Origin: an uncultured virus (IMG/VR IMGVR_UViG_3300032167_007731)
Lineage: Duplodnaviria; Heunggongvirae; Uroviricota; Caudoviricetes
Length of the DNA: 49,408 bases
Reading direction: 5' to 3' (one strand)
IMG/VR virus record: IMGVR_UViG_3300032167_007731
The notes beneath the pieces were generated by a model. The model did not search any database, was not told the origin of the DNA, and worked only from the letters and a program-made list of their open reading frames with translations. The translations under genes were made by a program, and so were the position numbers. Positions 1-28,775 of this stretch are shown in pieces (within the stretch, counting starts at the first letter, position 1; each line of letters starts with the position of its first letter).

Positions 1-3000
1 ACTAAATGCTGTTAATAAACCTGTTTTATAACCTATATGAGTAGCACCACCGCCACTAGCACCATTATGATTAGTACTTCCATATCCTCTTCCACCACCA
101 TTATAACCACCTTCTATAATAGCATTATCATTCAAACCTACCTTACCTTGACCACCAATATTTATATATAATGTGTCAGGACTACTTAAAGTTAATTCAC
201 CTACACTATAACCACCTTTTCCACCATTATAATAAGTATCACCACCTTGAGGACCCCAAGCTTCCAACTTATAACGACCTGCTGGAAGTGTTGTTGAGGT
301 AGAACCATAACCATTTGTAGGATTATAAGTATTACCACCTGTACCATAAGTACGAACTTGACCATCACCACCTACTGGAATTCCACAAGTCAATGTTGTT
401 GCAGTGCCACCACCTGAACTATAACCACAATCTTCTGTATGTGTATGTCCTAATCTTGTAATACGAGCATAACCATTTCCGCTATGACCTGTTTCAGAAG
501 TGCCTGTTGGAGAATTAAAAGTTTGTGAACCTGATTTATTCACTTCATTACTTCCTATATTATATGAAGTTCCACCTTCACCACCAACATTATAATTAGA
601 ACTATTACCAGATACCCCACTTCCAAAATCACCACCAACATAACCACCACCACCACCACCAGGATTTCCACCACCTATTCCACCACCACCAAAACCACCT
701 GAACCACCATATTGTGTAGTGGTTAAAGCGCCATTACCACCATTTATAAATGCTTTAGCAAAAGTGCTGCCATTGAGACTACCACTATTATTACTACCAT
801 CTGCATGAAAACCTGCACCACCTGAACCACCATTTCCTGAACCTGAACCACCTGTTCCTGTACTTCCATCTGGTGTTACAACCGCACCACCTACTTCACC
901 ATCACTATTATTATAACCTGCACCACCACCGCCACCTGCTACTATTAAAGGTGTTGCAGTTGAATATGAATTTCCACTTGCTATATATGTTCCACCACCA
1001 CCACCTGCAGCATACCAATTACCTGTTCCATTTCCAGCAGAACCTTGACCACCTACTAGAACTTGTAAAGTAGTAGAACTATTAAAAGTAAAATTACCTG
1101 ATGAATAAGCACCTTTACCACCTATATTATTAGGTGAAGTTCCACCTTGAGCACCCCAAACTTCTAATTTGTATTGACCTGCTGATAATGTTATATTTTC
1201 TATGCTTCCTTTATAACTAAATTCTTTAACTATTTCTTCTGAATTTTCATCTAATCCACAATTATAACCACCTACACCACCACCACCATAACATTCATCT
1301 GTATGTGTATGGCTTAAAGGTGTAATTCTTGCTAAACCATCTAAACCTACTATATTATTGTTACCACGTTTTCCATTTTCAGTAACTCCATTTTTAACTC
1401 CACCAATATATCCTGAACCACCATTACCAATAGTATTTGAAGTAGTTCCGCAATAACCACCATACCAGCCACCACCACCTGAACCCATATGTGTTCCATT
1501 TACACTCTGTCCTAAACCAAAAGCATATCCAGAAGTTTGTGTTGCTGCAGTAGAATTTCCTGCTTCGCTTAAAGCAATACCACCTGTTGTTCCACCGCCT
1601 GAACCACCTTGAACGCTTGCACTAGAAACACCTACATGTTCTGTACCACCACCACCACCTGCAACTATTAAAACATCTGACCTATAAGAATTTAATGAAC
1701 TTAATAATCCTGTTCTTGTTGCTATATGAGTAGCACCACCACCACCTGCTGAACCATCATTACCATTTGGTGTTAATGTTACATTACCACCACCATTATA
1801 ACCATTATGATATGAAGTATAATTACCTAATTCAGTATAGCCACCTGAACCACCAACTGCAACATATAATGTTGTAGGACTATTTAAATTTATAGTACCA
1901 CTAGAATACCCACCATAACCACCATAAGAAGTATTATTACTATTAGGATAACTATGTCCTCCACCTTGAGCACCCCAGACTTCCAACTTATACTCACCCG
2001 CAGGTAAATTAACTGTTTCTATTTTACCACTATATTTTATCTCTATTGGAGTACCTGGGTCATTTTCTGTCTTACCACATATCAAACTTGCACCACCATA
2101 CAAAAGTTTTGAATTTTGAACTTCTGTAAATCCTTTTGTATTATTATAAGTCCAATCTTCCCAAGTATGTAATAACCCTTCTTTTCCTTCCATAATCTTA
2201 TTATAAACAGTTTCACCTAAATATTTTTTAGCCTCTTCATGAGTCATTTGACCTGTTATAATCTTATTATAGATATCTTCCATTGCTGTGTTTTCACAAG
2301 TAATAATTACCCTACCATTTTCACTATTACCCCTTATTTCTCTTTGCAACAATTCTACAGCACAAGCGCTATTGGCTCCCTTATTACTATCTGTTCTATT
2401 TGCATATAGTAATTTTGTTTTATCTGAAATTGCTGTCAAATCTGCTATACTATTACCATCTACATTATCTGAACTGTTAGGTAAAGGATAAGTTCTTACA
2501 TCAGTAGTATAATTGTTATATCCTGCAATACCACCTACATAGATATACAATACAGTATTTGCTTTTAAGTATGTTCTTACCTTAGAATAACCACTTCTAC
2601 CGCTTGTTGTTGTAGAAGGACCATATGCTTCTATTGTATAGTAATCTGTATAAGGTACAACAAATGTCTGAACACCACCTGTATATCTAAACCATTTTGC
2701 ATCAAAAGTTGCTGTTGTTGTTAAACATTCAGCAGTATGAATATGAACATTGAAATCTGTTTCAGTATTCAATTCACCTGTGCATACTAAATGACCTATT
2801 GGTAATGTTTCACAAGTTGAGCTATAATTTGTAGTTTTGTAACAAGTTTCTGTATGAGTATGTGTTAATCTTGTTATTTTTGCCTGTCCATCACCTGTTT
2901 TTGTGCCATTTGAACCTGAAATTGAAGTTAATAATGAAGTATTTGCATAGCCTGAACCACCACCACCACCTGCGTCATCATCATCATTTCTAGTATAAGA

Positions 3001-5030
3001 TTCATAACTAGCACCACCACCATAGAAACCACCACCACCACCACAAGAGTTTTTACCACCATTACCACCTTGACCAAAACTTCCATTATAATATAACTGA
3101 CCTGCTGCAGAGGTAGTTGCACCATCTCCAGGAGTACCACATCCTGTACCACCTTTACCACCTGAAGCATTAGCACCACCACCTGAACCACCTGTTGTAC
3201 TACTAGCGCCACCACCACCGCCTGCTACAATATACAATTTAGTACTATAATCACTACTATATCCACTTAACTGACTATTTTTCAAACCTATATGAGTAGC
3301 GCCACCACCATAACCATGGTCCCCTGTACCACCACCATTAAAGGTCTTACCTTTACCACCAACTGCTATATATACAGTTGTATTAGATTTTAATGTTACT
3401 TCACCTGTTGCATATCCACCTGAACCACCTGTACCATTTCCTGAACCTTGAGCACCCCATACTTCTAATTTATAACGACCTGCAGGAAGTGTTTCACTAA
3501 CAACAGAACCTTTATAATTATATGTATATACTGTTCCATCACTATCCTCTGGAATAGTACAAGTTAAATCTTTTCTTGTATAAGAAAGATTATGCTTATG
3601 AACAGTAGGTGTTGTATAACAACCATTAGCATAATCAAGACCTGCTGTACCTATATGTCTATGACCTTTTGAAGTAATTACTATATAACCATTTCCTGAA
3701 TTTACATTATGTTTTACTTCATAAGAATCAGTTGAAACATCTGAAGTATATTCAGTTCCATTAACATAAGAAGTACCTATATATCCACCTACGTCAATTG
3801 TTTGACCTGTATAACCACCATGATAACCACCACCACCACCACCACCATCATTTGATGAATGACCTCTTTCACCTGTACCAAGAGTACCACAAGATTTTGC
3901 AGTTGTTTTTCCAGCATTACCTGAAGTTCCTGCACCACCGCCACCACCTGCTACCATTACTCTATTACTTAAAGCAGTGCCACCTATACGAATGTCACTA
4001 GCACCACCACCTGAACCTGAACCGCAACTACAACCACCTGCTTGACCGCCACCATTATAACCACCTGCTGTATTATTACCTGTATTACCTTTTCCACCTA
4101 CATATACATAAACTGTTGTTGTTTTATCTAAGGATAATTCTCCTCTTACATAAGTACCTTTTGAGCCTAATGTTGTACTATAAGAACCACCTTCTGCTCC
4201 ATATAATTCAACAGAATAAATACCTGGTTCTAATGATACAGTTGTATAATTATTTATAAAATCATACCTAACAGGTATTCCTGTTTCTGCTACAAAACCA
4301 TTACCACTATTTGTAGTAATTTTAACATAACCATTACCATTGTTTGAACCTGTTGCACCATTATTTGTAGATACTAAAGTTGCCTTTGAAGTATTCAAAT
4401 AACCTGAACCACCACCACCACCATTAGAGCCATTACCTACACCACCACCATAGTAACCACCGCCACCTGCTGCAACTGAATTATTCCATGTATTAGAGCC
4501 ACCTTGACCAAATGAGCCATTACCATCTGAATAAGTAGAACTTGTGTTCCACAAATTTGTACCACCACCTGTTGTCTTACCTGCACCTGAAGTAGAAGAG
4601 GCATTACCATTAGAATTAAATCCACCACCACCATAGCCATTTCCGCTATACTGGTCTGCTGCACCACCACCACCAACAACAGCTAAAATTTGGGAAGTTT
4701 TACCACTCAATGTTTTCAATTGACCTGATACAAAAGCAATACTTGTTGCACCACCACCTGAACGTTCATTACTATAATTGGTTGAACCACCACCATTATA
4801 TGCAACTGTTCCTGCACCTAATGAATAATTATTACCTGAAGCACCTGCATTCAAATACAAAGTAGTTTTCTGTGTTACAGTATAAGTAAACTTACCATAA
4901 CCACCTGCACCACCTATATAAGAAGTGCTAGAATTTCCACCTGAACCACCTTGCATTTCAATAGTATAAGTCCCTGGTTGTAATTCAACAACTTGTTCTG
5001 TACCTGTATAACCAAATGTTTGAGTCTTGG
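1..5030 (-). repeat. Array of >=7 glycine-rich domain repeats (Gly_rich / ALK-LTK-like) within the giant protein
   Basis: Repeat-start motifs: GTYTIEMQGGSGG (~4940-4975), GIYSVELYGAEGG (~4190-4225), GRYKLEVWGAQGS (~3445-3480), DYYTIEAYGPS (~2620-2650, shortened copy), GEYKLEVWGAQGG (~1960-2000), GQYKLEVWGAQGG (~1141-1180), GRYKLEAWGPQGG (~241-280). Internal GGGATHI, AGGGGG and GGGGGYYGG motifs; closing GNGYARIT-like motifs. Confidence 0.85.
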
Positions 5031-8000
5031 TATAAACTATTTTATCGTCTTTCCATTCACAACCTAATTGATAATTTGCATTTAACGCACCATCACAAGT
5101 AAATAAAGGCTCTTTCAAATAACAATCTTCATCATGAACATGAATTTTATTTGTAGCATGAACTGTTAATCTTTCATAGCAAATAGAACTATGAGTATTT
5201 GTTCCACCTTTTAATATTACTTGTAAATTATCTATTGAGAAATTCGCTTTATAAGCGTCATCCTGACTCCAACCACCTATATTCAAATTACTACCAATAT
5301 CTTTCTTTGTGTAACAAGATGGTTGTTCATCTATCCAATTTTGAGGTGTTTCAACCTTATTTATTTCATTTCTTGTGAATGAAGTTGGTGTTATTGACTT
5401 TTGAGTTCTATTTAATCTTCTAACACCATTAGCATCTGGCTGCCACACATCCTTCAAATCTGATACTGTTAAAGGTACATAAACACCATTTACCACTGCA
5501 TTGCAATCCACTACATTATTAAAACTAAATGTCATTTCTAATGTAATGTTATTAGGTAATTGAGAAGTACCTACATCCATTCTTGCACCTATTTGAGAAT
5601 TATCTAATGGACTCTTTGTTATAAATGAACCTGTTTTACCACTACCATTATTTAATAAGAAACCTAAATTATGGAATGATACAGGCATTAAATTATTAGC
5701 CCAACTATTTACTGTTATATCCATCTTAACAGTAATTCTATTAGTATTTGCATTAGATAAACCAAATTCAGAGAATGGTAAAGACCATCTTGTTCCATTT
5801 GCTCTTAAATAACCACCTGAACCTACTGAACCATTTTTACCTATTGTAAAACCTTCAGGTAAGATATATTCAACACCATTTACTTTATTTGTTGTTATCC
5901 ATCTCTTCAATGTTTCATCATATCTTGTTGCATTTTCCCTTAAACCTATTTCTTTTACAGTTTCTTTTACAGTTCCATCTTCCTGTTTAACCCTTCTGAT
6001 TTCTTTTTCCATATAAGTATCTTCAAAATCAATATCCAATAAAACTGTATCTTTATGAAATTTACAATCCAAAAATCTAAATTCACAAAGTTCAGGGTCT
6101 AAAGGACAAACCTTTAACTTATTAACCAAATCATTCATATTTGGATATTCAAAAGCATTTGTTCTTTGGTCTCTTGATACTTTCATACCATTTATATCTA
6201 AATCAGGTTGATTCATCACCATAGCTTCTTCAGTTGAAACAGGAGTAAATACTACTAATGAATTTACTGTTCCTGTTGAAGAATCTCCTATTGGAGTTTT
6301 AAAATATAATGTAGAATAATCCACACCATTTTTATTACCCCAATATTCCTGATAATAGTCGCCATGAGATACCTGTTGAGGCCAACCAATACTTACATTA
6401 CCACTTGTTGTTACTATATCATAAGTACCTGCCTCTCTATCAAATCTTTCCTTATCAATAGAATAATAACCTAATACTTCTGAATAGAATACTTTAGCAT
6501 TTTCAGGAGTATAAAGTTTATTTGGAGCAGTAGGTAATATTTGAATACCTGTTTGAACTATCTTAAATGAATCATCTTGACCTGTTACTTGTCTCTTTGG
6601 TCTTGTTATTGTCTTAGCAGGGTCTTCATCTAAAATTGTAGTTATAGAATGATTACCTAAAACATTATAAGAACCTTGTTTTGTTCTAGTATTATAATTA
6701 GTCCAATTAGCACCATTATTACCACCAAAATTCTTAAATACTCCTTCTTGTGGATTATAAGGTTTATACTTTTCAGTTGGTTTATTATACTGACCATTAT
6801 AACCACCTACCATTATGAAGTTTGCTGTATGAGTTGATTTTACATCTGTACTATTACAATTCATATCCCCTGTAAACAATGATAATGGGTTATTTAGGAA
6901 TAATTCATTCTCATCTATTTTAACCTTTTGAAAATGCTCTTGTGCCTCTGTTGGTTCTGAAGCCTTTTCATAATAGAAAATACTTTGGTCACCACCAGAA
7001 GTTTGTAATATCAGAAAATCTGATATTACATTTGCAATAACTTTTGTTCTTCTTGCCTTATCAAAGAACTGCCATTCAGCAGTTTGTGTATCTATTTCAT
7101 CAGCTGCGTCATTATACGCAGTTTTCTTTAATTCAGTTGACACACCTGATAAAACTTCTTCTCTAACAACATGATGGTTATAATCTTCTTTATATTTTGT
7201 AATATGTTCATCATTATTACTATATGTTTGAAGTGTATTAGCCTCAAAATTTTGAGTATCAGTAGTTGCACTATATAAGTCACAATCCCAATAACCACTA
7301 TATGCAGAAGTATTTTTACTCATACCAAATCCATCTGGTAATTGATGAACTGTTCTATTTAATATATTTGTATATAAACAACCATCCGCCCACTCATTTA
7401 CATGTCCAGTAGTTAGCATAGGTACAACATTTTCTGTGTCTTTTTTACCAAAATTCGCTGTAGTTGCCATACCATCACAATTCTTACTTCTTGCACCTGC
7501 ATTATAAATAACATCATCATGCTGATTAGGTGCTGCAATCAAATTAGGGTCAAAAGTATATGTACCACCTGTACCATTACCTTGCTCTGTTATTGTAATT
7601 GTTTCAGTAGTTTGACCCTCTGCTAAAGTATATCTCAATCTCCCTGCTCTACTACTTTGAGCTAATTGTCTATTTTGACCACTAAAATATGTTAAAATAT
7701 GACCATCAAATTCATTTAAACCCTTTGTTGAATCATTTACAGTGCTATCATAACCGTCAGGTAAAACTGTTCCATTTTTTGTCTGCTTTTCTGTCATTTG
7801 TGCAATATTCATAAAATATGTAGGATTACCACTAATAACATTAGCAAAAACAGTATCTACACCTGTTAATTCCTGTAAACCATCAACTGAACCCTGGTCT
7901 AACTTAAATAAACGAACCTGTGAAATCTTTGCAAAGTCATAAACTAAACCTTGTCTCCAAGTATCCCATAATTCAGGCATATGATGTCCACAACAAGGAC

Positions 8001-10920
8001 CACAAATTGAATGTTTAGGTATTGTAGAAGTTACAATAATAGTATATGCATGAGCAGTATTACAAGGAGTACCATATACACAATTTGTATTACTATGACT
8101 ATGCTTACTACTAGTACTACTACAAGAACTATGATTACCACCACAAGAACTACCACTTGTACCATTTGTTCCGTGATACACATGGTCATGTGTATCATCA
8201 TCTTCTGGATTTGATGGAGTCCATAACACTTGTCTTAATTTTCCATCACTTGCAGCAGTCCAAACAACATATTCCTGACCTAACTTTTGAGCATACTCTT
8301 TTGCCTGCTCCATAGCTTTATCATAATTAGGATGTTTACCATCTGCAACCGTACAAGATGAAACTAACTTTTTACCACAATCACTACAAGTACCATTTTC
8401 TACTACGGAACATTGGTCAGTTCCAGTCCATTTAGCTACAATAGTATCATCAAAATCACCTGTATGATTTTCATTATTACACTTAATATCTTGGTCATCA
8501 TAAGAACCACCTGTTGGTTGTAATATTGGATGAGTTAAAGGTAATCTATCACCCTGACCTTCAATATCATTATTATACTCACAAATATTTCCATCAAAAT
8601 GAACTGTATAAGTTCTATCTCTACTATGTTCATTCATCCAATATTGCATAACTAAGGCTAATTTGAATTCTGAACCACCAACAGAAAAATAGATTTCTTC
8701 TGAGGAAGGAATACCACCCATTACCTCATACTCTTCATTTAATGGAACATTACTCTTTATTTCTGCAAACTCTTCACCTGAAGAAGAAAACTCCATTCTT
8801 TTTACCATTTGAGTATTCTCCCTCAAATTTTCATCTTTTGAAGGGTCAACAATTTCAGTTGTATCAGTTGAAGTAGGTTTTACAATTACTATATCCTCAG
8901 GTTTACTTAACATATTTGTATATGCTGGTAAATTTATTTCCGCAAAGTCATAATAATCTCTATCAGCACCACCTCTACCTTTTAATACAATATCTTCATA
9001 CTTAAACTCATATGTCTGTTTATCTATTGTTACATCTATATTTATTTCATATTTATAACGATAACTACCACCTGCACCCATATCTCTTGTCAACTTTTCA
9101 CCTATAATTGTAGTATCTCTCAATATAAATGGTTCATTTTGTAATTTAGCAATCATATCATCACCATTTATTACACCATCTAATTGATTCTCTAATTCAG
9201 ACATTTGTTTTCTTGCATCTATAATATTTCCATCTTCCCAACCATTTTTATAAACTGTTCTATATATTTCTGAATCTATTTTTATACCTTCAAAATTAGG
9301 ATTATCCTTTCTTGAGTTCAATGAAGAAATCAAAGAAGAATCACCTTTTATACTAACAGTAATAACAGATGGATTTTCAATGTTTACATCAGGGTCACAA
9401 TCCTTTGGTAATACATCAACTGTACTATCAACGTGATAAGAAACCTCTGGAACAGGATTTACAAAATGATTACCTATAATCATAAAACCAGAAGTACCAC
9501 TACCTTTTGTTCCATCAAATAAAATATGTTCTATTTTACCTGAATAATCTGAAGTACTTGTACCTGTATGTTGCCCATTATATGCACCACCATCCCTAGT
9601 TCTTAAAATTTGATTATCAAAAAATTGTGCTGAATAAGCCCACTGCATAGGTGCATGACTTATTTCACCCATTCTTCCTAAATAATAATCTAAGTATCTT
9701 ACTACTGCACTAGGTCCTCTACCTGCATAATAATCTTTCCAAGATTTTCTATTTAAAGACATATTATACATAGTTGTCAATAATTGTCTTGTATTACCAT
9801 TTGCTGCTGAATTATTAGCTAATATCTGATTATTTGGATTTGTTAATGCCTCATTTTGTTCTGCTAAACCTACAAATTGTAAATAATCAATATCTGCCAA
9901 TATAAAGTTTTTATCATTTTGATATACAAAACCTGAAGCAGTATCAATTATCAAACTAACGGGTTTTGTCTCACTATTTGCATTTAATAAATAATCATTA
10001 ATCGCATCAAAGTAAGTACCACCTACTTTTTCTCTAACTCCTACTTCATCATCAGTAGTATTTATATGCTCCTGATTAAAACTATAATTATAAGTTGAAG
10101 TTATAACACTATATAAACAAGTTAAAAGACCCACATAACCCGCTGATATATCCATTTTTCTATCTGCATCTAATAAAGATGGGTCTTTACTCCAATTGTT
10201 TTCGACATCAAAATTATAATGTGTTGTTTTTCTTTCTATAACATTTGTTAATCTACTATCAACCTGATAACTACCACCTACTTGAGCAAATATATAATTA
10301 AGAACACTCATAGCCTCTGAAGCACTAGGCATATAATCTAACCACTTATTACCTACTGCTAAATCAGATAAACTATTTATATCCCCATTATAATAAGCAT
10401 TCATTACATCCTCTTTAAAAGGATTCTCAGGTACAGAACTACCTGGATTTCCATTTGTTAAATCTATTAATAAACTCCTATAATAACCTGCAAAAAATGA
10501 CAAACCTTGTTCACCTGGTTTATATTGAGCTACCCAACGTCTATGTCCTGAAGGTATTGAATTATAAGTATTAAACCAATTAGCAGTTCTTGGACTAATT
10601 AAATAAATTGTATTACTCTCCAAATCACTATCATTAGGCCATCTAGATTTATAATAACTAACTACTTTATTCCTCTGCTCATCAGTACCATTTAAATATG
10701 TGTTTTCATTTCTTGACAAAACTATTCTAAATTCTACTGAATCTGTCTGTGCTGTACCACCCAAATAGTTTTCATTACCACGAGGTCCATCATTCTGAAC
10801 AGTAGAACCTATCATATTTCCACCATCAGCAAAAGCCGCAGTCATAACTTCTGCGGGCATAACAGTAAATAACATACATATAAACAATAAACTTGCAATA
10901 CTTCTTTTAATAAATCTCAT
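1..10920 (-). CDS. Giant secreted protein (>=3640 aa, 3' end beyond the window) with tandem glycine-rich domains; probable surface adhesin/fibre
   Basis: ATG at 10920 preceded by GGAAGGAGG; N-terminus MRFIKRSIASLLFICMLFTVMPAEVMTAAFA-DG looks like a Sec signal peptide (AFA site). Spot translation at many points is in the same frame down to position 1 (...ASGGGATHIGYKTGLLTAFS). Absence of any ORF-track entry in this frame is what an unterminated ORF would give. I did not check every codon. Confidence 0.9.
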   Translation of the reverse strand, partial: MRFIKRSIASLLFICMLFTVMPAEVMTAAFADGGNMIGSTVQNDGPRGNENYLGGTAQTDSVEFRIVLSRNENTYLNGTDEQRNKVVSYYKSRWPNDSDLESNTIYLISPRTANWFNTYNSIPSGHRRWVAQYKPGEQGLSFFAGYYRSLLIDLTNGNPGSSVPENPFKEDVMNAYYNGDINSLSDLAVGNKWLDYMPSASEAMSVLNYIFAQVGGSYQVDSRLTNVIERKTTHYNFDVENNWSKDPSLLDADRKMDISAGYVGLLTCLYSVITSTYNYSFNQEHINTTDDEVGVREKVGGTYFDAINDYLLNANSETKPVSLIIDTASGFVYQNDKNFILADIDYLQFVGLAEQNEALTNPNNQILANNSAANGNTRQLLTTMYNMSLNRKSWKDYYAGRGPSAVVRYLDYYLGRMGEISHAPMQWAYSAQFFDNQILRTRDGGAYNGQHTGTSTSDYSGKIEHILFDGTKGSGTSGFMIIGNHFVNPVPEVSYHVDSTVDVLPKDCDPDVNIENPSVITVSIKGDSSLISSLNSRKDNPNFEGIKIDSEIYRTVYKNGWEDGNIIDARKQMSELENQLDGVINGDDMIAKLQNEPFILRDTTIIGEKLTRDMGAGGSYRYKYEINIDVTIDKQTYEFKYEDIVLKGRGGADRDYYDFAEINLPAYTNMLSKPEDIVIVKPTSTDTTEIVDPSKDENLRENTQMVKRMEFSSSGEEFAEIKSNVPLNEEYEVMGGIPSSEEIYFSVGGSEFKLALVMQYWMNEHSRDRTYTVHFDGNICEYNNDIEGQGDRLPLTHPILQPTGGSYDDQDIKCNNENHTGDFDDTIVAKWTGTDQCSVVENGTCSDCGKKLVSSCTVADGKHPNYDKAMEQAKEYAQKLGQEYVVWTAASDGKLRQVLWTPSNPEDDDTHDHVYHGTNGTSGSSCGGNHSSCSSTSSKHSHSNTNCVYGTPCNTAHAYTIIVTSTIPKHSICGPCCGHHMPELWDTWRQGLVYDFAKISQVRLFKLDQGSVDGLQELTGVDTVFANVISGNPTYFMNIAQMTEKQTKNGTVLPDGYDSTVNDSTKGLNEFDGHILTYFSGQNRQLAQSSRAGRLRYTLAEGQTTETITITEQGNGTGGTYTFDPNLIAAPNQHDDVIYNAGARSKNCDGMATTANFGKKDTENVVPMLTTGHVNEWADGCLYTNILNRTVHQLPDGFGMSKNTSAYSGYWDCDLYSATTDTQNFEANTLQTYSNNDEHITKYKEDYNHHVVREEVLSGVSTELKKTAYNDAADEIDTQTAEWQFFDKARRTKVIANVISDFLILQTSGGDQSIFYYEKASEPTEAQEHFQKVKIDENELFLNNPLSLFTGDMNCNSTDVKSTHTANFIMVGGYNGQYNKPTEKYKPYNPQEGVFKNFGGNNGANWTNYNTRTKQGSYNVLGNHSITTILDEDPAKTITRPKRQVTGQDDSFKIVQTGIQILPTAPNKLYTPENAKVFYSEVLGYYSIDKERFDREAGTYDIVTTSGNVSIGWPQQVSHGDYYQEYWGNKNGVDYSTLYFKTPIGDSSTGTVNSLVVFTPVSTEEAMVMNQPDLDINGMKVSRDQRTNAFEYPNMNDLVNKLKVCPLDPELCEFRFLDCKFHKDTVLLDIDFEDTYMEKEIRRVKQEDGTVKETVKEIGLRENATRYDETLKRWITTNKVNGVEYILPEGFTIGKNGSVGSGGYLRANGTRWSLPFSEFGLSNANTNRITVKMDITVNSWANNLMPVSFHNLGFLLNNGSGKTGSFITKSPLDNSQIGARMDVGTSQLPNNITLEMTFSFNNVVDCNAVVNGVYVPLTVSDLKDVWQPDANGVRRLNRTQKSITPTSFTRNEINKVETPQNWIDEQPSCYTKKDIGSNLNIGGWSQDDAYKANFSIDNLQVILKGGTNTHSSICYERLTVHATNKIHVHDEDCYLKEPLFTCDGALNANYQLGCEWKDDKIVYTKTQTFGYTGTEQVVELQPGTYTIEMQGGSGGNSSTSYIGGAGGYGKFTYTVTQKTTLYLNAGASGNNYSLGAGTVAYNGGGSTNYSNERSGGGATSIAFVSGQLKTLSGKTSQILAVVGGGGAADQYSGNGYGGGGFNSNGNASSTSGAGKTTGGGTNLWNTSSTYSDGNGSFGQGGSNTWNNSVAAGGGGYYGGGVGNGSNGGGGGSGYLNTSKATLVSTNNGATGSNNGNGYVKITTNSGNGFVAETGIPVRYDFINNYTTVSLEPGIYSVELYGAEGGSYSTTLGSKGTYVRGELSLDKTTTVYVYVGGKGNTGNNTAGGYNGGGQAGGCSCGSGSGGGASDIRIGGTALSNRVMVAGGGGGAGTSGNAGKTTAKSCGTLGTGERGHSSNDGGGGGGGYHGGYTGQTIDVGGYIGTSYVNGTEYTSDVSTDSYEVKHNVNSGNGYIVITSKGHRHIGTAGLDYANGCYTTPTVHKHNLSYTRKDLTCTIPEDSDGTVYTYNYKGSVVSETLPAGRYKLEVWGAQGSGNGTGGSGGYATGEVTLKSNTTVYIAVGGKGKTFNGGGTGDHGYGGGATHIGLKNSQLSGYSSDYSTKLYIVAGGGGGASSTTGGSGGGANASGGKGGTGCGTPGDGATTSAAGQLYYNGSFGQGGNGGKNSCGGGGGFYGGGASYESYTRNDDDDAGGGGGSGYANTSLLTSISGSNGTKTGDGQAKITRLTHTHTETCYKTTNYSSTCETLPIGHLVCTGELNTETDFNVHIHTAECLTTTATFDAKWFRYTGGVQTFVVPYTDYYTIEAYGPSTTTSGRSGYSKVRTYLKANTVLYIYVGGIAGYNNYTTDVRTYPLPNSSDNVDGNSIADLTAISDKTKLLYANRTDSNKGANSACAVELLQREIRGNSENGRVIITCENTAMEDIYNKIITGQMTHEEAKKYLGETVYNKIMEGKEGLLHTWEDWTYNNTKGFTEVQNSKLLYGGASLICGKTENDPGTPIEIKYSGKIETVNLPAGEYKLEVWGAQGGGHSYPNSNNTSYGGYGGYSSGTINLNSPTTLYVAVGGSGGYTELGNYTSYHNGYNGGGNVTLTPNGNDGSAGGGGATHIATRTGLLSSLNSYRSDVLIVAGGGGGTEHVGVSSASVQGGSGGGTTGGIALSEAGNSTAATQTSGYAFGLGQSVNGTHMGSGGGGWYGGYCGTTSNTIGNGGSGYIGGVKNGVTENGKRGNNNIVGLDGLARITPLSHTHTDECYGGGGVGGYNCGLDENSEEIVKEFSYKGSIENITLSAGQYKLEVWGAQGGTSPNNIGGKGAYSSGNFTFNSSTTLQVLVGGQGSAGNGTGNWYAAGGGGGTYIASGNSYSTATPLIVAGGGGGAGYNNSDGEVGGAVVTPDGSTGTGGSGSGNGGSGGAGFHADGSNNSGSLNGSTFAKAFINGGNGALTTTQYGGSGGFGGGGIGGGNPGGGGGGYVGGDFGSGVSGNSSNYNVGGEGGTSYNIGSNEVNKSGSQTFNSPTGTSETGHSGNGYARITRLGHTHTEDCGYSSGGGTATTLTCGIPVGGDGQVRTYGTGGNTYNPTNGYGSTSTTLPAGRYKLEAWGPQGGDTYYNGGKGGYSVGELTLSSPDTLYINIGGQGKVGLNDNAIIEGGYNGGGRGYGSTNHNGASGGGATHIGYKTGLLTAFS

Positions 10921-22267: not shown

Positions 22268-24532
22268 TTATCTTCTCTTAACTACAATTTTATCATAGAA
22301 CTCTTTGTTAAAGTTGTCTTTCTTATTAACAACTCTAAATCCACCTTTGAATCTTTCAGGTTCAGCAACTAATTCAGCCAAATTTTCTTCTGTCATACTA
22401 GTTACTTCTACTATCTTATCACCTTTACCTACTCTAATAAGTTTAGTACGAGCAGTTCTCTTTTTCTCAATAAACTTACTCTCTACAATACCTATTTTAC
22501 CCATTTTGGTCTTTAAGACAATATAACCCTTATCCAATCTTACTCTACCAATCATTTGATTTATATAGGCAGGACAAAGACCAACATCAGTTATCTTTAA
22601 TCTTCTTTTTGCACTATACCATTCATTATAATCAATTACTGCTATATAACCATCATCATACATATAACCCATTTTCTTATTCGCTACTACTGCAATATCT
22701 AAAATCTTAAATTCATCAATATTATCAAAGTAACGAGGGAGATATGTACCCTTTTCATTTGGACTATTAAAGTCTAAATCTTCAAGCATTACCCTTAACA
22801 ATCTACCATTACTGTCAAGATAACTTACAATATCATCTGACATACATTTAACAGCACCAGGTAAAGCAGCATTTGAAGGTACCCCTTTTAATTTCTTTAA
22901 GAACATACCATTGCAAATTATAACTACAGGCACAGGTTCAGGTTTTGTTTTCTTAACTGTTTCAAATGTATAGTCATCAGTAGTAATTTCAGTTTTTCTT
23001 GGGAATTTATATTTCTTATTTAATTCCTCTAATTCACGAACTATTCTACCACCAACATTTTCAAAATCTGCCTCCTGTGAAGCCTTTTCTGCTCTTAATT
23101 CTTCTAAATAACTTCTTTGTTTATTTCCTACACCCTTTAAACTTCTCAAACTTCTATCCAAAATCCAGTCAAATATAGCTTCATCTGCATCTGGATAATA
23201 ACCACGAAGTAAATCTTTTGTAGGTTGATAATCACTTGTTTCATCTTTTAACAAAGTTTCCAAAAAGACATCTCTCTTATCAGTTGTCATTAAATCTACT
23301 AATATGTCATATCTTTCAATCAATGCACCTAGTCTATCAATATCTTTTTTAATCTCTGTTTTTAATACTTCTTCTCTAAATTTTACCCACTCTTTAATTA
23401 CATCATAAACACCTAAAACAACAGGCTTATTATCTATAATTAAAACAATATTTGAAGTAATCTGCATTTGTAAATTACTTACCCTTAATACTTCTTTTAA
23501 TACACTATCTACCAACTTTTTAGAAGAACATTCAATAGTTAAACGAAGACCTGTTTTATCACATTCATCTTTAACATCATTTACACCAGCTAAATCTTTA
23601 ACTGCATTTTTTATTTCTTCTACTGTTGTATAATAAGGTATTTCATCAATTACAATTATTTTACCCTCAATATGCCATTTACCACGAAGTTTTATCTTTG
23701 CATTACCTGTTCTCATTAACTTTTTCAATTCAGTTTCATTAAGAACATAACAACCACCTGTTGTAAAATCAGGTGCTAAACCTTTCTTGATTTCACCTGT
23801 TTTAATATATTCAATAGTTGCCTTATTAACTTCATGAAAATTAAAACTTGGTATATTTGAAGCAAGACCTACAGCAATACCCTGTGAAGTATTACATAAA
23901 ATACTTGGATAACTTACAGGTAACAATAAAGGTTCTTTCAACTTATTATCATAAGATGGTATCATTTCAATACCATCCATACCTCTAAAACATTCATCAG
24001 CAATCTTTGTAAACATACATTCTGTATAACGAGCTGCTGCAGGTTTTTCATCAGTTGAAAATACATGACCAAATGAACCTTTACCTTTAATAAAAGGAGT
24101 ATTTAAATACATAGCCTCATCTGTCATACGAACCATTGTATCATAAATTGAAGCATCACCATGAGGGTGAATTTTCATTGTTGTACCTGCAATACCACCA
24201 CATTTTGTAAAATCCTTAGTTAAATCATTATCTCTTTCTAAATATTTCATAGCATACATAATTCTACGCTGTGAAGGTTTAAAACCATCAATAGCAGGAA
24301 TTGCTCTGTCTAAAACAACTTCCTTTGCATAATCAAGATAACCATTTACTAAAAATCTTAAACTTTCTGGTATATTTCTCTGATAAGCCTTTTTATCAAC
24401 TTCTACTACATCACTTGTTTCTTCATTTTCTACAATTTCAGTAGTTTCTGTTTCTATATTATCAACTTCTTCTATATTTTCAGAAGGAGTTAATTCTTCA
24501 TTTATATTCATATCATCATTAAAACTCATCAT
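22268..24532 (-). CDS. gyrA: Type IIA topoisomerase subunit A (GyrA/ParC family)
   Basis: RAIPAIDGFKPSQRR, HPHGDASIYD, AAARYTE (catalytic Tyr), GIAVGLASNIP, PDFTTG; divergent CTD with no GyrA-box seen. Confidence 0.95.
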   Translation of the reverse strand: MMSFNDDMNINEELTPSENIEEVDNIETETTEIVENEETSDVVEVDKKAYQRNIPESLRFLVNGYLDYAKEVVLDRAIPAIDGFKPSQRRIMYAMKYLERDNDLTKDFTKCGGIAGTTMKIHPHGDASIYDTMVRMTDEAMYLNTPFIKGKGSFGHVFSTDEKPAAARYTECMFTKIADECFRGMDGIEMIPSYDNKLKEPLLLPVSYPSILCNTSQGIAVGLASNIPSFNFHEVNKATIEYIKTGEIKKGLAPDFTTGGCYVLNETELKKLMRTGNAKIKLRGKWHIEGKIIVIDEIPYYTTVEEIKNAVKDLAGVNDVKDECDKTGLRLTIECSSKKLVDSVLKEVLRVSNLQMQITSNIVLIIDNKPVVLGVYDVIKEWVKFREEVLKTEIKKDIDRLGALIERYDILVDLMTTDKRDVFLETLLKDETSDYQPTKDLLRGYYPDADEAIFDWILDRSLRSLKGVGNKQRSYLEELRAEKASQEADFENVGGRIVRELEELNKKYKFPRKTEITTDDYTFETVKKTKPEPVPVVIICNGMFLKKLKGVPSNAALPGAVKCMSDDIVSYLDSNGRLLRVMLEDLDFNSPNEKGTYLPRYFDNIDEFKILDIAVVANKKMGYMYDDGYIAVIDYNEWYSAKRRLKITDVGLCPAYINQMIGRVRLDKGYIVLKTKMGKIGIVESKFIEKKRTARTKLIRVGKGDKIVEVTSMTEENLAELVAEPERFKGGFRVVNKKDNFNKEFYDKIVVKRR

Positions 24533-25558: not shown

Positions 25559-26002
25559 TTACACAACAGAGTTTTCAACCTCTAAATCTACAAGACCTTC
25601 TGATAACATTTCAAAAATATAATCTTTTCTCTCATTATCAGTATCATTACCAAATAACATATTTGACATTTTTACTACACTTTCTTCAACTATATCCATA
25701 GTTAAAGGCACTAATCTACGAGTTTCAGGATTCATTGTTGTCATCCATAACATTTCCTTAGTATTTTCACCAAGTCCTTTTGAACGATGAATTTTCTTAA
25801 ATTTCTTACCCTTTTTCTCTAAATCTGCCAATATTTTATTCTTTTCTTCTACACTATATGCAAATACACTACCATCTTTACCACCTAAAACTATTTCAAA
25901 CAAAGGAGTTTCTGCAACATATACTTTTCCTTTTCTCAATAATTCTGGCATTAAACGATAGAATACTGTATATAACAACACTCTAATTTGAAAACCGTCA
26001 AC
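25559..26002 (-). CDS. gyrB: GyrB/ParE exon 2 (147 aa)
   Basis: GTT GAC GGT TTT CAA ATT AGA = VDGFQIR in frame with the tracked ORF (LLYTVFYRLMPEL...ETPLF...RSKGLGE...TTMNPETRRL). Confidence 0.93.
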   Translation of the reverse strand, partial: VDGFQIRVLLYTVFYRLMPELLRKGKVYVAETPLFEIVLGGKDGSVFAYSVEEKNKILADLEKKGKKFKKIHRSKGLGENTKEMLWMTTMNPETRRLVPLTMDIVEESVVKMSNMLFGNDTDNERKDYIFEMLSEGLVDLEVENSVV

Positions 26003-27248
26003 CCTTTATACCCTGCATTACTGCATATTTATATATTTCTTATAAATATTATATTTCCTATCCATATATACTGTACTATTTCTATACATTTCATTTAATA
26101 CAAATAATGCTTTTTTATGTGTATAATGTATATCACTAATACTTCTTGTTTTTACAATATTTTTACTACATCCTAAATTTTCAAAATATTTTGTTATACC
26201 TAATAATAAATCTTTATTACCACAAATATGTACTCCCAAACATTTATCTCTTTTAGCATAATATACACTACCATCTCCGTCAAAAACACCACGAATAAAA
26301 TGTCTTTGTAAATGTAAAGGTATTTTTGGAAATTGTTCAAGAAATGTTTTATTTTCAACTATACCATATTTTCCTAAATCATTATATAATTTTTCAGAGC
26401 ATATTAAAATCCTTGCTATTTTACTATCTTGTTTATACCCTTTTCCATTATATATTTTTATTTCATAAGTAGCATTCATATCTTTCTTAAATTTTTCTAA
26501 ATGACCTTTATCTTCTACTTTTAACCCTATACATAAATATTTACCATAATCATGAGTTTGAACATATCCATCTGCAAGGATAAAACCTAACCAATATGCT
26601 TTCTTCTCTGTATCTATTGTCTCAAAAAAGTTTTCATTGCAATAATATTTACGAGAAGTTATTTTTTGATTTCTTATAGGTATATTATGTTCTTTTAAAT
26701 ATTTTGAAAGATTATTTCTACTTATATGATATTGTTCTGCAATTTCTCTTAAAGATTTACCATTTATATATTCTTTAACATACTTTTCATACATTTTATC
26801 ACCTACTTTTAATAGATGATTTATAAGAAATATAGGGAGTAGACTATATCATTATCTACCAAATATTATAAATTTTAATATCAATATGTATAAAACATAT
26901 TTCCCAAGATTTAATCTTGTGGTTTAGATATACTGCACTTCCATTTAAGAGATTTTCACTCACTTGCTTTCACAAGCCGTACACCTATTGACTTTTATTT
27001 ATACAGACAGTCCATTGGGTTAGTCGTTGAGGCCAACTCTATTCAAGTCGTGCCTGCTGATTAGTGATTTTGTTTTCAGACTTTTAGGGTTTCCCCTTGA
27101 GTTATCCATATTTTTATTTCTGTCTTTCGACCACATTCATATAGATTTATTTCATCCTATATTGTAGTAAATATGGCTTTACACCTTCCCAGCATATCAC
27201 AGTATTTTTTATCCCACACCATTTCTGATATGGGCGACATTGCTACAT
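26003..27248 (-). mobile_element. Group I self-splicing intron (1246 nt) in gyrB, carrying a homing endonuclease
   Basis: 5' exon ends GGCGAU and pairs with intron GUCGCC (P1, U-G at the splice site); P element UGCUGGGAA (~27186-27194), Q AAUCAGCAGG (~27053-27062), R UCAACGACUA (27021-27030), S AUGAUAUAGUCU (~26841-26852); P3 AUACUG/CAGUAU; P7 GACUA/UAGUC; terminal omega-G at 26003; excision restores TTDGD|VDGFQIR. Confidence 0.93.
26018..26794 (-). CDS. Intron-encoded LAGLIDADG homing endonuclease with N-terminal HTH
   Basis: Two motifs YWLGFILADG and FIRGVFDGDG; N-terminal KSLREIAEQYHISRNNLSKYLK; own AGGTG RBS; lies between P7 3' strand and omega-G (P9 region). Confidence 0.92.
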   Translation of the reverse strand: MYEKYVKEYINGKSLREIAEQYHISRNNLSKYLKEHNIPIRNQKITSRKYYCNENFFETIDTEKKAYWLGFILADGYVQTHDYGKYLCIGLKVEDKGHLEKFKKDMNATYEIKIYNGKGYKQDSKIARILICSEKLYNDLGKYGIVENKTFLEQFPKIPLHLQRHFIRGVFDGDGSVYYAKRDKCLGVHICGNKDLLLGITKYFENLGCSKNIVKTRSISDIHYTHKKALFVLNEMYRNSTVYMDRKYNIYKKYINMQ

Positions 27249-28775
27249 ATCGCCATCTGTTGTTAAGATTACTTTATCAAACTGCAATTTATTTATATCA
27301 AATAAATCTTCACTACCACCTATATCTACACCACAGCCTAATGTTGTAATCAAATCTTTTATAACCTTATTTTCAAGAACTTGTTCAATAGGAGCCTTCA
27401 AACAATTCAATGTTTTACCTCTTACAGGTAATAATGCTTGGAATTTACTATCACGAGCATTTTTACAGGAGCCTAAAGCTGAATCACCCTCAAGGATAAA
27501 TAGTTCTTTTTCTTTTGGGTCATTACTTCTACAATCTACATATTTCTCTGCCTTAACTTTTTTACCACCTGTTGTCTTACGAATCAATCTTTCTTGACTC
27601 TCCAACTCTTTTGCTTTTTTACGAGCAATAGCAGCATTAACTACATTTTCCATTAAGACATTCATACTGTTAAGACCTTTTGCAACTGATTCCTCTAACA
27701 AATCACTTACAGTCTTTTTAACCAAATCATAAATAAATTTATTATCTACACCATCTTTGGTCTGATTTGCAAATGAAGTAATATTACTATAACTACTTAC
27801 TAAAATACTTAAATAATCATTATAGTCATAAGGCATAATTGTTACACCATTTTTCTTACCTAATGCCTTAAAGAAACCACTTACTGCATCTTGAACTGCT
27901 TGAATATGATAACCTGTTGTCATTGTTGCAGTATTATGAAAGAATAATTGCTTACTTTCTGTTTCTTCTGTTATAGCCAAACATAACTCACAAACAGCAG
28001 TATATCTTTGATTTCTTTCCTCAAAACCCTCTGTTTTCTCTTTCTTCTGCAATACTTCTATTACATTATCACCTACTTGCTCACGAAGATAATATTCAAT
28101 ACCTTTACCTTCAAAACGAGCAGTTTCACCTGACTTTTCATCTGTTAATGTAAAGTTTACCTCATTTATATGAGCCTGACCCTCACAATACTCTAAAAAG
28201 TCTTTAAACTTAAAGTTTGTATTCCTAAATACTTCATTATCAATTTTCCACTTAATAAATGTACCATGCTGTTCTTCATCCAAAGTTACCTCAATAGGCT
28301 TTTTCATATCAGAAGGATTACCTTTTGCAAACTCCTTCTTATACATTTTATCACCCTGATAACTCTCTACAATAAAATACTCTGATACATACTGAACTGC
28401 TGCAGCACCTAAACCATTCAAACCAACTGAGAACTTATAAACTTCATCATCCTCATATTTACCACCTGCATACAATTCATTAAATACTAAATCCCAATTC
28501 CAACGCTCTTCAGACTGATTCCAACCCATAGGAACACCACGACCATAATCTCGAACTGAAATTGCACCATCCTTATAATATACAACCTCAATCTCTTTAC
28601 CATAGCCACCACGAGCCTCATCCAAAGAGTTACCTAAAATCTCCTTAAATGTGTGAAAAGCACCTTTAATATTATCTGAACCAAACATTACACCTGGTCT
28701 TAAACGCACTCTATCCGCACCTTTTAGAGATTTTATGCTGTCATCATTGTAATTAGTGTCCAACTTTTTTGACAT
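27249..28775 (-). CDS. gyrB: GyrB/ParE exon 1 (509 aa); spliced product 656 aa
   Basis: VRLRPGVM, EILGNSLDE, RDYGRGVP, AGGKY, GLNGLG (GHKL), FANQTK, LEGDSA, PVRGK, VILTTDGD; GGAGG RBS. Confidence 0.95.

Follow-up and report, generated by a model that had tools for sequence, protein, structure and literature searches.

The interrupted gyrB gene

The window analysed here is the whole stretch of 49,408 nucleotides (nt) from an uncultured virus of the Caudoviricetes (IMG/VR record IMGVR_UViG_3300032167_007731), with a G+C content of 30% and with all long open reading frames (ORFs) on the minus strand, as are the window features given by coordinates below. It carries the gene for a gyrB-type large subunit of topoisomerase II in two exons, 27249..28775 (509 codons, ending in ...TTDGD) and 25559..26002 (147 codons and a stop, starting with VDGFQIR), separated by 1246 nt at 26003..27248; this insert is very probably a mobile group I intron seated in the metal-binding Toprim motif (..TTDGD|VDG..) of the phage gene, around its second and third Asp codons. 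Exon 1 was identified from its Pfam matches (DNA_gyraseB, Toprim and HATPase_c), its PHROG matches (543 and 28877) and its public relatives, which span 100% to 70% identity, and exon 2 from Pfam DNA_gyraseB_C (E 4.2e-16) and PHROG 543.

Gene callers split this essential gene into two ORFs, one at 27243-28775 (510 aa), which reads ...ILTTDGDM and then TAG, and the other at 25559-25981 (140 aa, GTG start), which starts seven codons past the junction. The profile matches divide at the same point: Pfam Toprim breaks off at the final exon-1 residue, position 66 of the 96 in the profile, and PHROG 543 is distributed over exon 1 (profile positions 17-518) and the downstream ORF (527-640), the gap of eight positions being filled by the frame upstream of the GTG, which reads VDGFQIR and then the V at the GTG codon itself. 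Joining 27249 to 26002 by script gives 657 codons with a sole, terminal stop, that is, a protein of 656 aa with the junction LTTDGD|VDGFQIRV, which aligns without gap columns to the public proteins P0001 (651/656 identical) and P0002 (649/656 identical). P0002 and P0004 are uninterrupted, and their sequence across the join, ...ILTTDGDVDGFQIRV..., includes DGDVDGFQIR. The boundaries of the intron are fixed by this gapless alignment of the spliced product to intron-free alleles, and they coincide exactly with the coordinates, the junction and the 656-aa length given in a preliminary description of the locus; the same description had placed the insertion inside the DxD|xDG metal-binding motif of Toprim and the end of the unspliced message at DGDM-stop, in agreement with the conceptual splice and the broken Toprim match on the first point and with the reading of the 510-aa ORF on the second.

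Anatomy of the intron RNA

The 1246-nt intron begins with AUGUAG, a Met codon followed by a stop, and ends in ...AAAGG; besides the gapless alignment, its delineation draws on an alignment to the Rfam group I model RF00028 that lies below the gathering threshold, on a helix map and on a motif signature. The P1 helix (27233..27254), found by direct reading, in the Rfam alignment and in the minimum free energy (MFE) fold, joins GGCGAU(AU) at 27254-27247 with (AU)GUCGCC at 27240-27233: the last six exon bases and the AU of the intron pair with AUGUCGCC, thirteen nt inside the intron, in a helix of 8 bp, where the splice-site U27249 forms a U.G pair with G27238. Part of the internal guide (CAAU, 27239..27242), read directly, may pair with GUUG of exon 2 (26002-25999) as P10, and overlaps the P1 extension.

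The strands of the ribozyme core (26842..27232) were located manually, with the Rfam alignment as guide. They comprise P2 (27232-27/27220-15), P3 (27205-00/26935-30), P4 (27194-89/27060-55), P5 (27185-82/27066-63), P5a (27176-69/27113-06), P6 (27054-52/27033-31 with 27050-46/27038-34), P7 (27025-21/26846-42) and P8 (26929-25/26858-54), together with two hairpins between P7 and P3' (27012-09/26993-90, and 26976-72/26967-63 with a GAAA loop). Every core strand from P3 to P8 was found and is complementary, including the P3/P7 pseudoknot and the P4-P6 stack. The periphery is extended: the interior extension of P5 measures 118 nt and bears three hairpins capped by GAAA, the spacing from P7 to P3' is 85 nt with the two hairpins mentioned, and P8 is branched. 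Assignment to subgroup IA is plausible from the two hairpins between P7 and P3', which the small relatives of the intron do not have. An unguided MFE fold of 26819-27254 recovers P1, P3, P4, P5, P5a and P6 together with the hairpins, with a z-score of -4.43 and none of 100 shuffles equally stable.

The 3' tail (26003..26014) consists of AGGG at 26014-26011, then UAUAAAGG, and the terminal G at 26003. AGGG pairs with CCCU at 26837-26834 to form P9, which closes a loop of about 820 nt containing an endonuclease ORF, and the omega G is G26003, removal of the intron up to this base restoring the reading frame exactly. The 12-nt tail and the same CCC...GGG spacing recur in a relative without the ORF, seen as RNA (X18, below), and similar tails occur in an IMG/VR gyrB locus (L021) and in Staphylococcus phage introns. 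P1, P10, the strands of P4, P7 and P3 in the core and the terminal G had all been named in the preliminary description, and direct reading, the Rfam alignment and the helix map locate each of them.

A LAGLIDADG gene in the P9 loop

The gene that sits in the P9 loop (26018..26794), which the preliminary description did not mention, encodes 258 aa and is preceded, 4 nt ahead of its ATG, by a Shine-Dalgarno-like AGGUGA (26799..26804; direct reading). Its product is predicted to be a LAGLIDADG homing endonuclease, from matches to Pfam LAGLIDADG_3 (PF14528, E 3.3e-9, 37.3 bits against a cutoff of 22.5) and to PHROG 4645, 'endonuclease' (E 6e-59); both motifs, ..WLGFILADGYV.. and ..FIRGVFDGDGSV.. 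(ILADG and FDGDG), are found in a single chain and keep their acidic residue. The N-terminus is helix-turn-helix-like, with weak matches to HTH_28 and ANT that fall under their cutoffs, and a PDB sequence search with the 258-aa protein gave nothing significant (best E 0.14). At the nucleotide level the gene resembles an 'intron-encoded endonuclease' of the crAss-like phage cr6_1 (84% of 77 nt) and a sequence in Lak-A1 (72% of about 150 nt). A free-standing LAGLIDADG gene with a 40% identical product (E 2e-25) was found at L011:5979-6731, between an uninterrupted gyrB and gyrA; the gyrB motif of L011 is itself altered, to ..CDSDAFG...

Intron-bearing and intron-free alleles

The population set consisted of the best 120 relatives of exon 1, among which 103 are full length with the D.D.DG motif intact, five stop at TD[GA]DM like the window gene (70-95% identical), one stops after TDAD with other letters, one is otherwise short, and ten stop directly after the ..EG of the EGDSA motif. 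From this sorting it follows that the intron is present in some and absent from other phages that are 94-99% identical in gyrB, so that intron-free and intron-bearing alleles coexist at this level of identity; the search among gyrB homologs that the preliminary description had proposed thus found both kinds. A search of IMG/VR for related loci with exon 1 alone returned none. The intron-free P0001 is identical to the window protein through residue 507 and differs at 508, 510, 555, 581 and 617; residues 508 and 510 bracket the point of insertion (DGDV becomes DADT), and the other three lie downstream. This pattern may reflect a boundary of recombination or co-conversion, or a site that is resistant to the nuclease.

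RNA contigs of close relatives

The window sequence was found in metagenomes of animal feces and gut, and a small share of it in four metatranscriptome runs from two studies. RNA contigs, which are assemblies and not reads, were matched to the window at a likeness of at least 85%. In two of them, from runs of two studies, the 3' tail of the intron runs on, in RNA sense, into its 5' part, which it enters at 27242. The X20 contig (640 nt, depth 11.7) covers 26839..27242, then two letters, then 26001..26230, with 230 nt on the shorter side, and the X18 contig (470 nt, depth 7.19) covers 27133..27242, then 38 letters, then 26835..27155, with 110 nt on the shorter side. Genomic DNA cannot yield such an order, which is the one that a circular excised intron would give; the contigs come from close relatives, about 95% identical, and not from this copy. 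Both junctions, at equal tail lengths, read terminal G and then GUGACAAUG, which fits a circle without the first two intron bases if the introns of the relatives begin with AU. In both X18 and X20 the intron contigs are deeper than the exon contigs, a comparison that was set aside because contig depth is not a valid measure here.

X18 is a bovine gut metatranscriptome, and its contig lies over window positions 26835-27242. The form of the intron that it represents is without the ORF: in place of the loop of about 820 nt in P9 it has a 38-nt stretch after P7, with the same CCC...GGG pairing and the 12-nt tail. It therefore seems that the endonuclease gene entered an intron which already existed. 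Near-identical phages include forms with no intron, with the intron but no ORF, and with both, as expected of an element that is still moving.

The sequence differences in these contigs also bear on the helix map. None of the 11 listed substitutions in the core breaks a mapped helix, the 11 being the best-supported differences and a partial count, with 216 further differences besides. G27184A and C27064U compensate each other in P5, U27063C strengthens the adjoining P5 pair from G.U to G-C, and two A-to-G changes preserve pairing in a P8 hairpin; the remaining listed substitutions fall in a loop (two) and in joining regions (four).

Weight of the evidence and alternative explanations

The group I call of the preliminary description is upheld by the intron-free alleles, the structure map, the circle-junction contigs of the relatives and a motif signature. 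This signature consists of four motifs common to the gyrB introns of cultured jumbo phages, in the order TGCTG[GA], ATCAGCA, TCAACGACTA and GATATAGTCT. It matches the window once, at 27194-26841 on the minus strand, within the insert, and none of 300 shuffles; taken alone, each of its two 10-mers also has a single occurrence in the window. Eight of 130 loci match, all of them jumbo-phage gyrB records, and among the introns detected is that of PALS_2, which played no part in deriving the signature.

Several results weigh against this interpretation, the first group of them from Rfam. At its gathering threshold (50 bits) RF00028 has no match in the whole window, and a search of a 1651-nt stretch against Rfam at E <= 10 gave chance matches only, with no group I hit; the sole group I match, on a stretch of 471 nt, reaches 16.3 bits against the 50 required, with E 0.095 and a bias of 30.1. 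The circle-junction contigs are assemblies from relatives that are about 95% identical; the covariation rests on the 11 substitutions drawn from the longer list. A 151-nt contig of X18 that joins the exons, from 26002 to 27249 with 1246 nt skipped (depth 2.1), has a shorter side of 21 nt, below the 31-nt rule, and could stem from an intron-free allele; it was rejected as evidence of splicing and not counted. Close DNA relatives of the intron core were not recovered either: a 15-nt pattern found 40 loci in IMG/VR, none of them alike by blastn, a 20-nt pattern found 0 in JGI metagenomes, and a two-anchor pattern found 0, 0 and 0 in JGI metagenomes, GTDB genomes and IMG/VR, respectively.

As regards Rfam, the covariance-model search suggested in the preliminary description did yield a full-length alignment, spanning positions 5-253 of the 253 in RF00028 and placing P1 at the predicted site, at a score that stays below gathering. 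The gathering threshold is insensitive for the gyrB-intron class, because other gyrB introns also score below 50 bits: there were 0 matches in 12 loci at gathering, and in sensitive mode L021 reached 29.9 bits and the second intron of L025 26.3 bits. A covariance model (R1) built from five Staphylococcus phage gyrB introns, run with filters off, did not match the window intron, its best matches in the window being noise of <= 15 bits; neither did it match any of 65 loci that included the known introns of L021, L022, L124, L127 and L128. R1 is too narrow and failed these positive controls, so its miss is uninformative. A mixed alignment of six introns was discarded because its quality was too poor.

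The defective-intron alternative, by which the insert would be a true group I intron by descent whose present copy no longer splices, its peripheral insertions or its ORF disturbing the fold and leaving gyrB as a pseudogene or dependent on a helper, is improbable. It would accommodate the low covariance-model score and a core stretched in P5 (118 nt), from P7 to P3' (85 nt) and in P9 (the ORF-bearing loop of about 820 nt). Both exons, however, are intact, free of frameshifts and stops, and match uninterrupted alleles at 99% identity, all core helices pair, the endonuclease ORF is whole with both catalytic motifs, and the same ORF-bearing architecture, at about 95% identity, gives the circle-junction contig in X20.

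Still less probable is a gene permanently split by a selfish endonuclease gene, in the manner of T4, in which nothing is spliced and a 510-aa chain assembles with a separately made one of about 140 aa (begun at GTG 25981) into an active enzyme. In its favour, gene callers see two ORFs, GenBank annotates such pairs in PALS_2, AH12, PB50, Internexus and BpSp as two 'DNA gyrase subunit B' genes, the related LAGLIDADG gene of L011 stands free between gyrB and gyrA, and T4 is described as carrying two genes in place of the single gene of phage SH7. A split of this kind would nevertheless leave DGD on one chain and lose VDGFQIR, since the first start lies seven codons downstream, and this first in-frame start, GTG 25981, has no Shine-Dalgarno-like motif ahead of it (20 of the 32 mechanically called gene starts in the window have one); the insert, moreover, has a complete group I core, with the exact end of the exon paired in P1, and the intron RNA of relatives is seen as circles. 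An intein or a group II intron can be dismissed: an intein does occupy the same site in L013, and 33 known GyrB inteins are tabulated in a survey (PMC4760082), but the frame stops two codons into the insert, the stop counts of its three frames (54, 14 and 37) mean that it is not an in-frame insert and refute the intein reading, and for group II the insert has neither a reverse transcriptase nor an Rfam group II match in the searches made of it.

Proposed splicing and homing

The group I intron is genuine and probably active, and this exact copy would be expected both to splice and to home. The gene would be transcribed through the intron, and ribosomes on the unspliced RNA would stop two codons in (AUG UAG). 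The RNA would adopt the group I fold; an external guanosine would attack after U27249, held by the U.G pair of P1, and the freed end of exon 1 would in turn attack behind the terminal G (26003), with P10 providing the alignment, to give the mRNA for the 656-aa subunit; these splicing steps are read from the anatomy. The excised intron would be circularised, as in the RNA contigs of close relatives, which are not of this copy. The LAGLIDADG protein, with its own ribosome-binding site in the P9 loop, is expected to cut intron-free gyrB at the sequence coding for DGD|VDG in a mixed infection, and repair after cutting would copy the intron in (homing).

Genomic context

Outside the intron, the gyrA-type partner subunit is encoded at 22268..24532 (Pfam DNA_topoisoIV, E 1e-87). 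Positions 1-10920 on the minus strand are occupied by a giant ORF of more than 3640 aa that runs off the window and contains six stretches matching the glycine-rich domain ALK/LTK of Pfam (E 3.7e-138), in the neighbourhood of an FtsK-like ATPase, a HerA/AAA_10-like ATPase and a DnaB-like helicase. The replicon may be a phage or another large mobile element.

The insertion site among phage gyrB genes

The preliminary description regarded gyrB as an unusual host site, and this does not hold: the same junction is interrupted in Staphylococcus jumbo phages and in 19 of 80 distant gyrB loci of IMG/VR (27-32% identical). The preprint of Korn et al. (bioRxiv 10.1101/2020.12.14.422802) counts DNA gyrase B as one of the genes that introns disrupt in Staphylococcus jumbo phages, so that gyrB introns are already on record. 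In GenBank, gyrB introns are carried by MarsHill (MW248466), Madawaska (MW349129), Machias (MW349128), AH12 (OR455461) and PB50 (OR770614), and the records of the first three give the gyrB coding sequence as a join of two exons. By tblastn MarsHill and Madawaska break at SDAD|DDGLHI, which is the same codon junction as in the window, and AH12, Machias and PB50 have a 177-nt intron at that junction. Literature searches that linked phage group I introns to gyrB, gyrase or topoisomerase gave nothing on this site beyond Korn et al.: PMC7685451 and PMC5238451, in their accessible portions, contain 'group I intron' and 'gyrase subunit B' with no connection between them, and the main text of the group I intron database paper PMC11835236 mentions neither gyrase, topoisomerase nor phage.

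Of the 19 interrupted IMG/VR loci, 13 have a match on each flank, the intein of L013 being one of these, and six have matches that end at the junction, three of which were followed across it in the sequence. Most of the interrupted loci have a different-looking core with GIY-YIG genes, and L021 and L022 have a 256-nt intron without an ORF. In L013, a 333-kb phage contig, the intein lies in frame at 5470-6500 (E 2.8e-15 to Pfam Intein_splicing) and occupies precisely this GyrB junction, ..MTDAD | S...HN | TDGAHIK.., so that intron and intein share one site. The GIY-YIG ORFs in the gyrB introns at L019:5780, L038:5852, L047:6287 and L056:5982 each contain one in-frame TAG, which may be read as a residue or may mark decaying ORFs.

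Two further interruption hot spots were observed in phage gyrB, EG|DSA and KG|LG. The first, after EG of the Toprim EGDSA, is represented by the ten close relatives noted above, whose proteins are among P0013-P0020, P0025, P0037 and P0051 (P0013 is 98% identical to window exon 1 up to the break), and by 3 of the 80 IMG/VR loci (L061, L063 and L068). The other, which lies in the C-terminal domain behind KG or KGLG, holds second introns at L025:6038-6310, from L047:5996 onward and in AH12 (L126:2387-2530).

Four kinds of element were seen at DxD|xDG or within three codons of it: the MarsHill-type lineage, of which the window copy is an enlarged form that carries a LAGLIDADG gene, another intron lineage, whose genes are of the GIY-YIG type, a small intron that lacks an ORF, and an intein. 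A wider reading, the chances of which appear about even, is that this codon junction in the Toprim of phage GyrB is a convergent landing site for several kinds of element, and that the excised intron of the window lineage persists in the gut as circular RNA above the level of the host mRNA; if so, unrelated nuclease families would have converged on the same few codons of a catalytic motif. No new question of principle is raised. On the practical side, the curated Rfam threshold misses the window intron and 12 of the 12 related loci tested, so that pipelines relying on it will miss the class, and from the split gene calls together with these misses it follows that phage gyrB in metagenomes will often be miscalled as truncated or duplicated. 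The natural series of intron-free, ORF-less and endonuclease-bearing forms, with circular intron RNA in relatives, is usable for studies of homing and of the invasion of introns by endonuclease genes.

Comparison with known systems

The window intron is an enlarged, LAGLIDADG-bearing member of the gyrB intron family annotated in cultured jumbo phages, and it adds a much larger, endonuclease-carrying form to a family known so far from the small ORF-less introns of these phages. It resembles the MarsHill-type introns in its host gene and junction (TDGD|VDG as compared with SDAD|DDG), in the same four core motifs in the same order, and in the ..AUAAA(A)G 3' end. The MarsHill-type introns, however, measure 155 or 177 nt and have no ORF, whereas the window intron measures 1246 nt, with a LAGLIDADG gene in P9 and long insertions at three places (P5, P8 and the P7-P3' interval). 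By blastn the MarsHill-type introns show no similarity to the window intron, and the GyrB of SA1, a related Staphylococcus phage, is about 28% identical to that of the window. The Bacillus jumbo phages BpSp and Internexus and the Staphylococcus phage PALS_2 share the four-motif core and the Toprim motif with the window, but their introns sit one codon-triplet further on (DADDDG|); that of PALS_2 has an ORF of 287 aa ahead of the core, without a Pfam match and unrelated to the window endonuclease. GyrB inteins differ from the window insert in being in frame and spliced at the protein level, whereas the insert is full of stops.

In gut jumbo ('Jug') and crAss-like phages, where such introns are common, 2513 introns have been described in 136 of 139 genomes, with 17 LAGLIDADG genes, and metatranscriptome reads support the splicing of 37 of 76 introns; the hosts named in the accessible portion of this source are terL, nrdD and DNA polymerase, and not gyrB, and its table S4 includes GyrB-like fragments, one of which ends directly after ..CEG (PMC12880540). 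Like the window, these are uncultured gut phages in which essential genes are broken by group I introns and homing endonucleases.

The td, nrdB and nrdD introns of T4 offer the classical comparison: in these, too, a gene of DNA metabolism is interrupted in a catalytic motif, translation of the unspliced message meets an early stop, and the ORF is looped out of the ribozyme core. The difference lies in the endonucleases and in their position, since the T4 introns carry GIY-YIG or HNH-type enzymes (I-TevI-type) in other loops, whereas the window intron carries a LAGLIDADG enzyme in P9.

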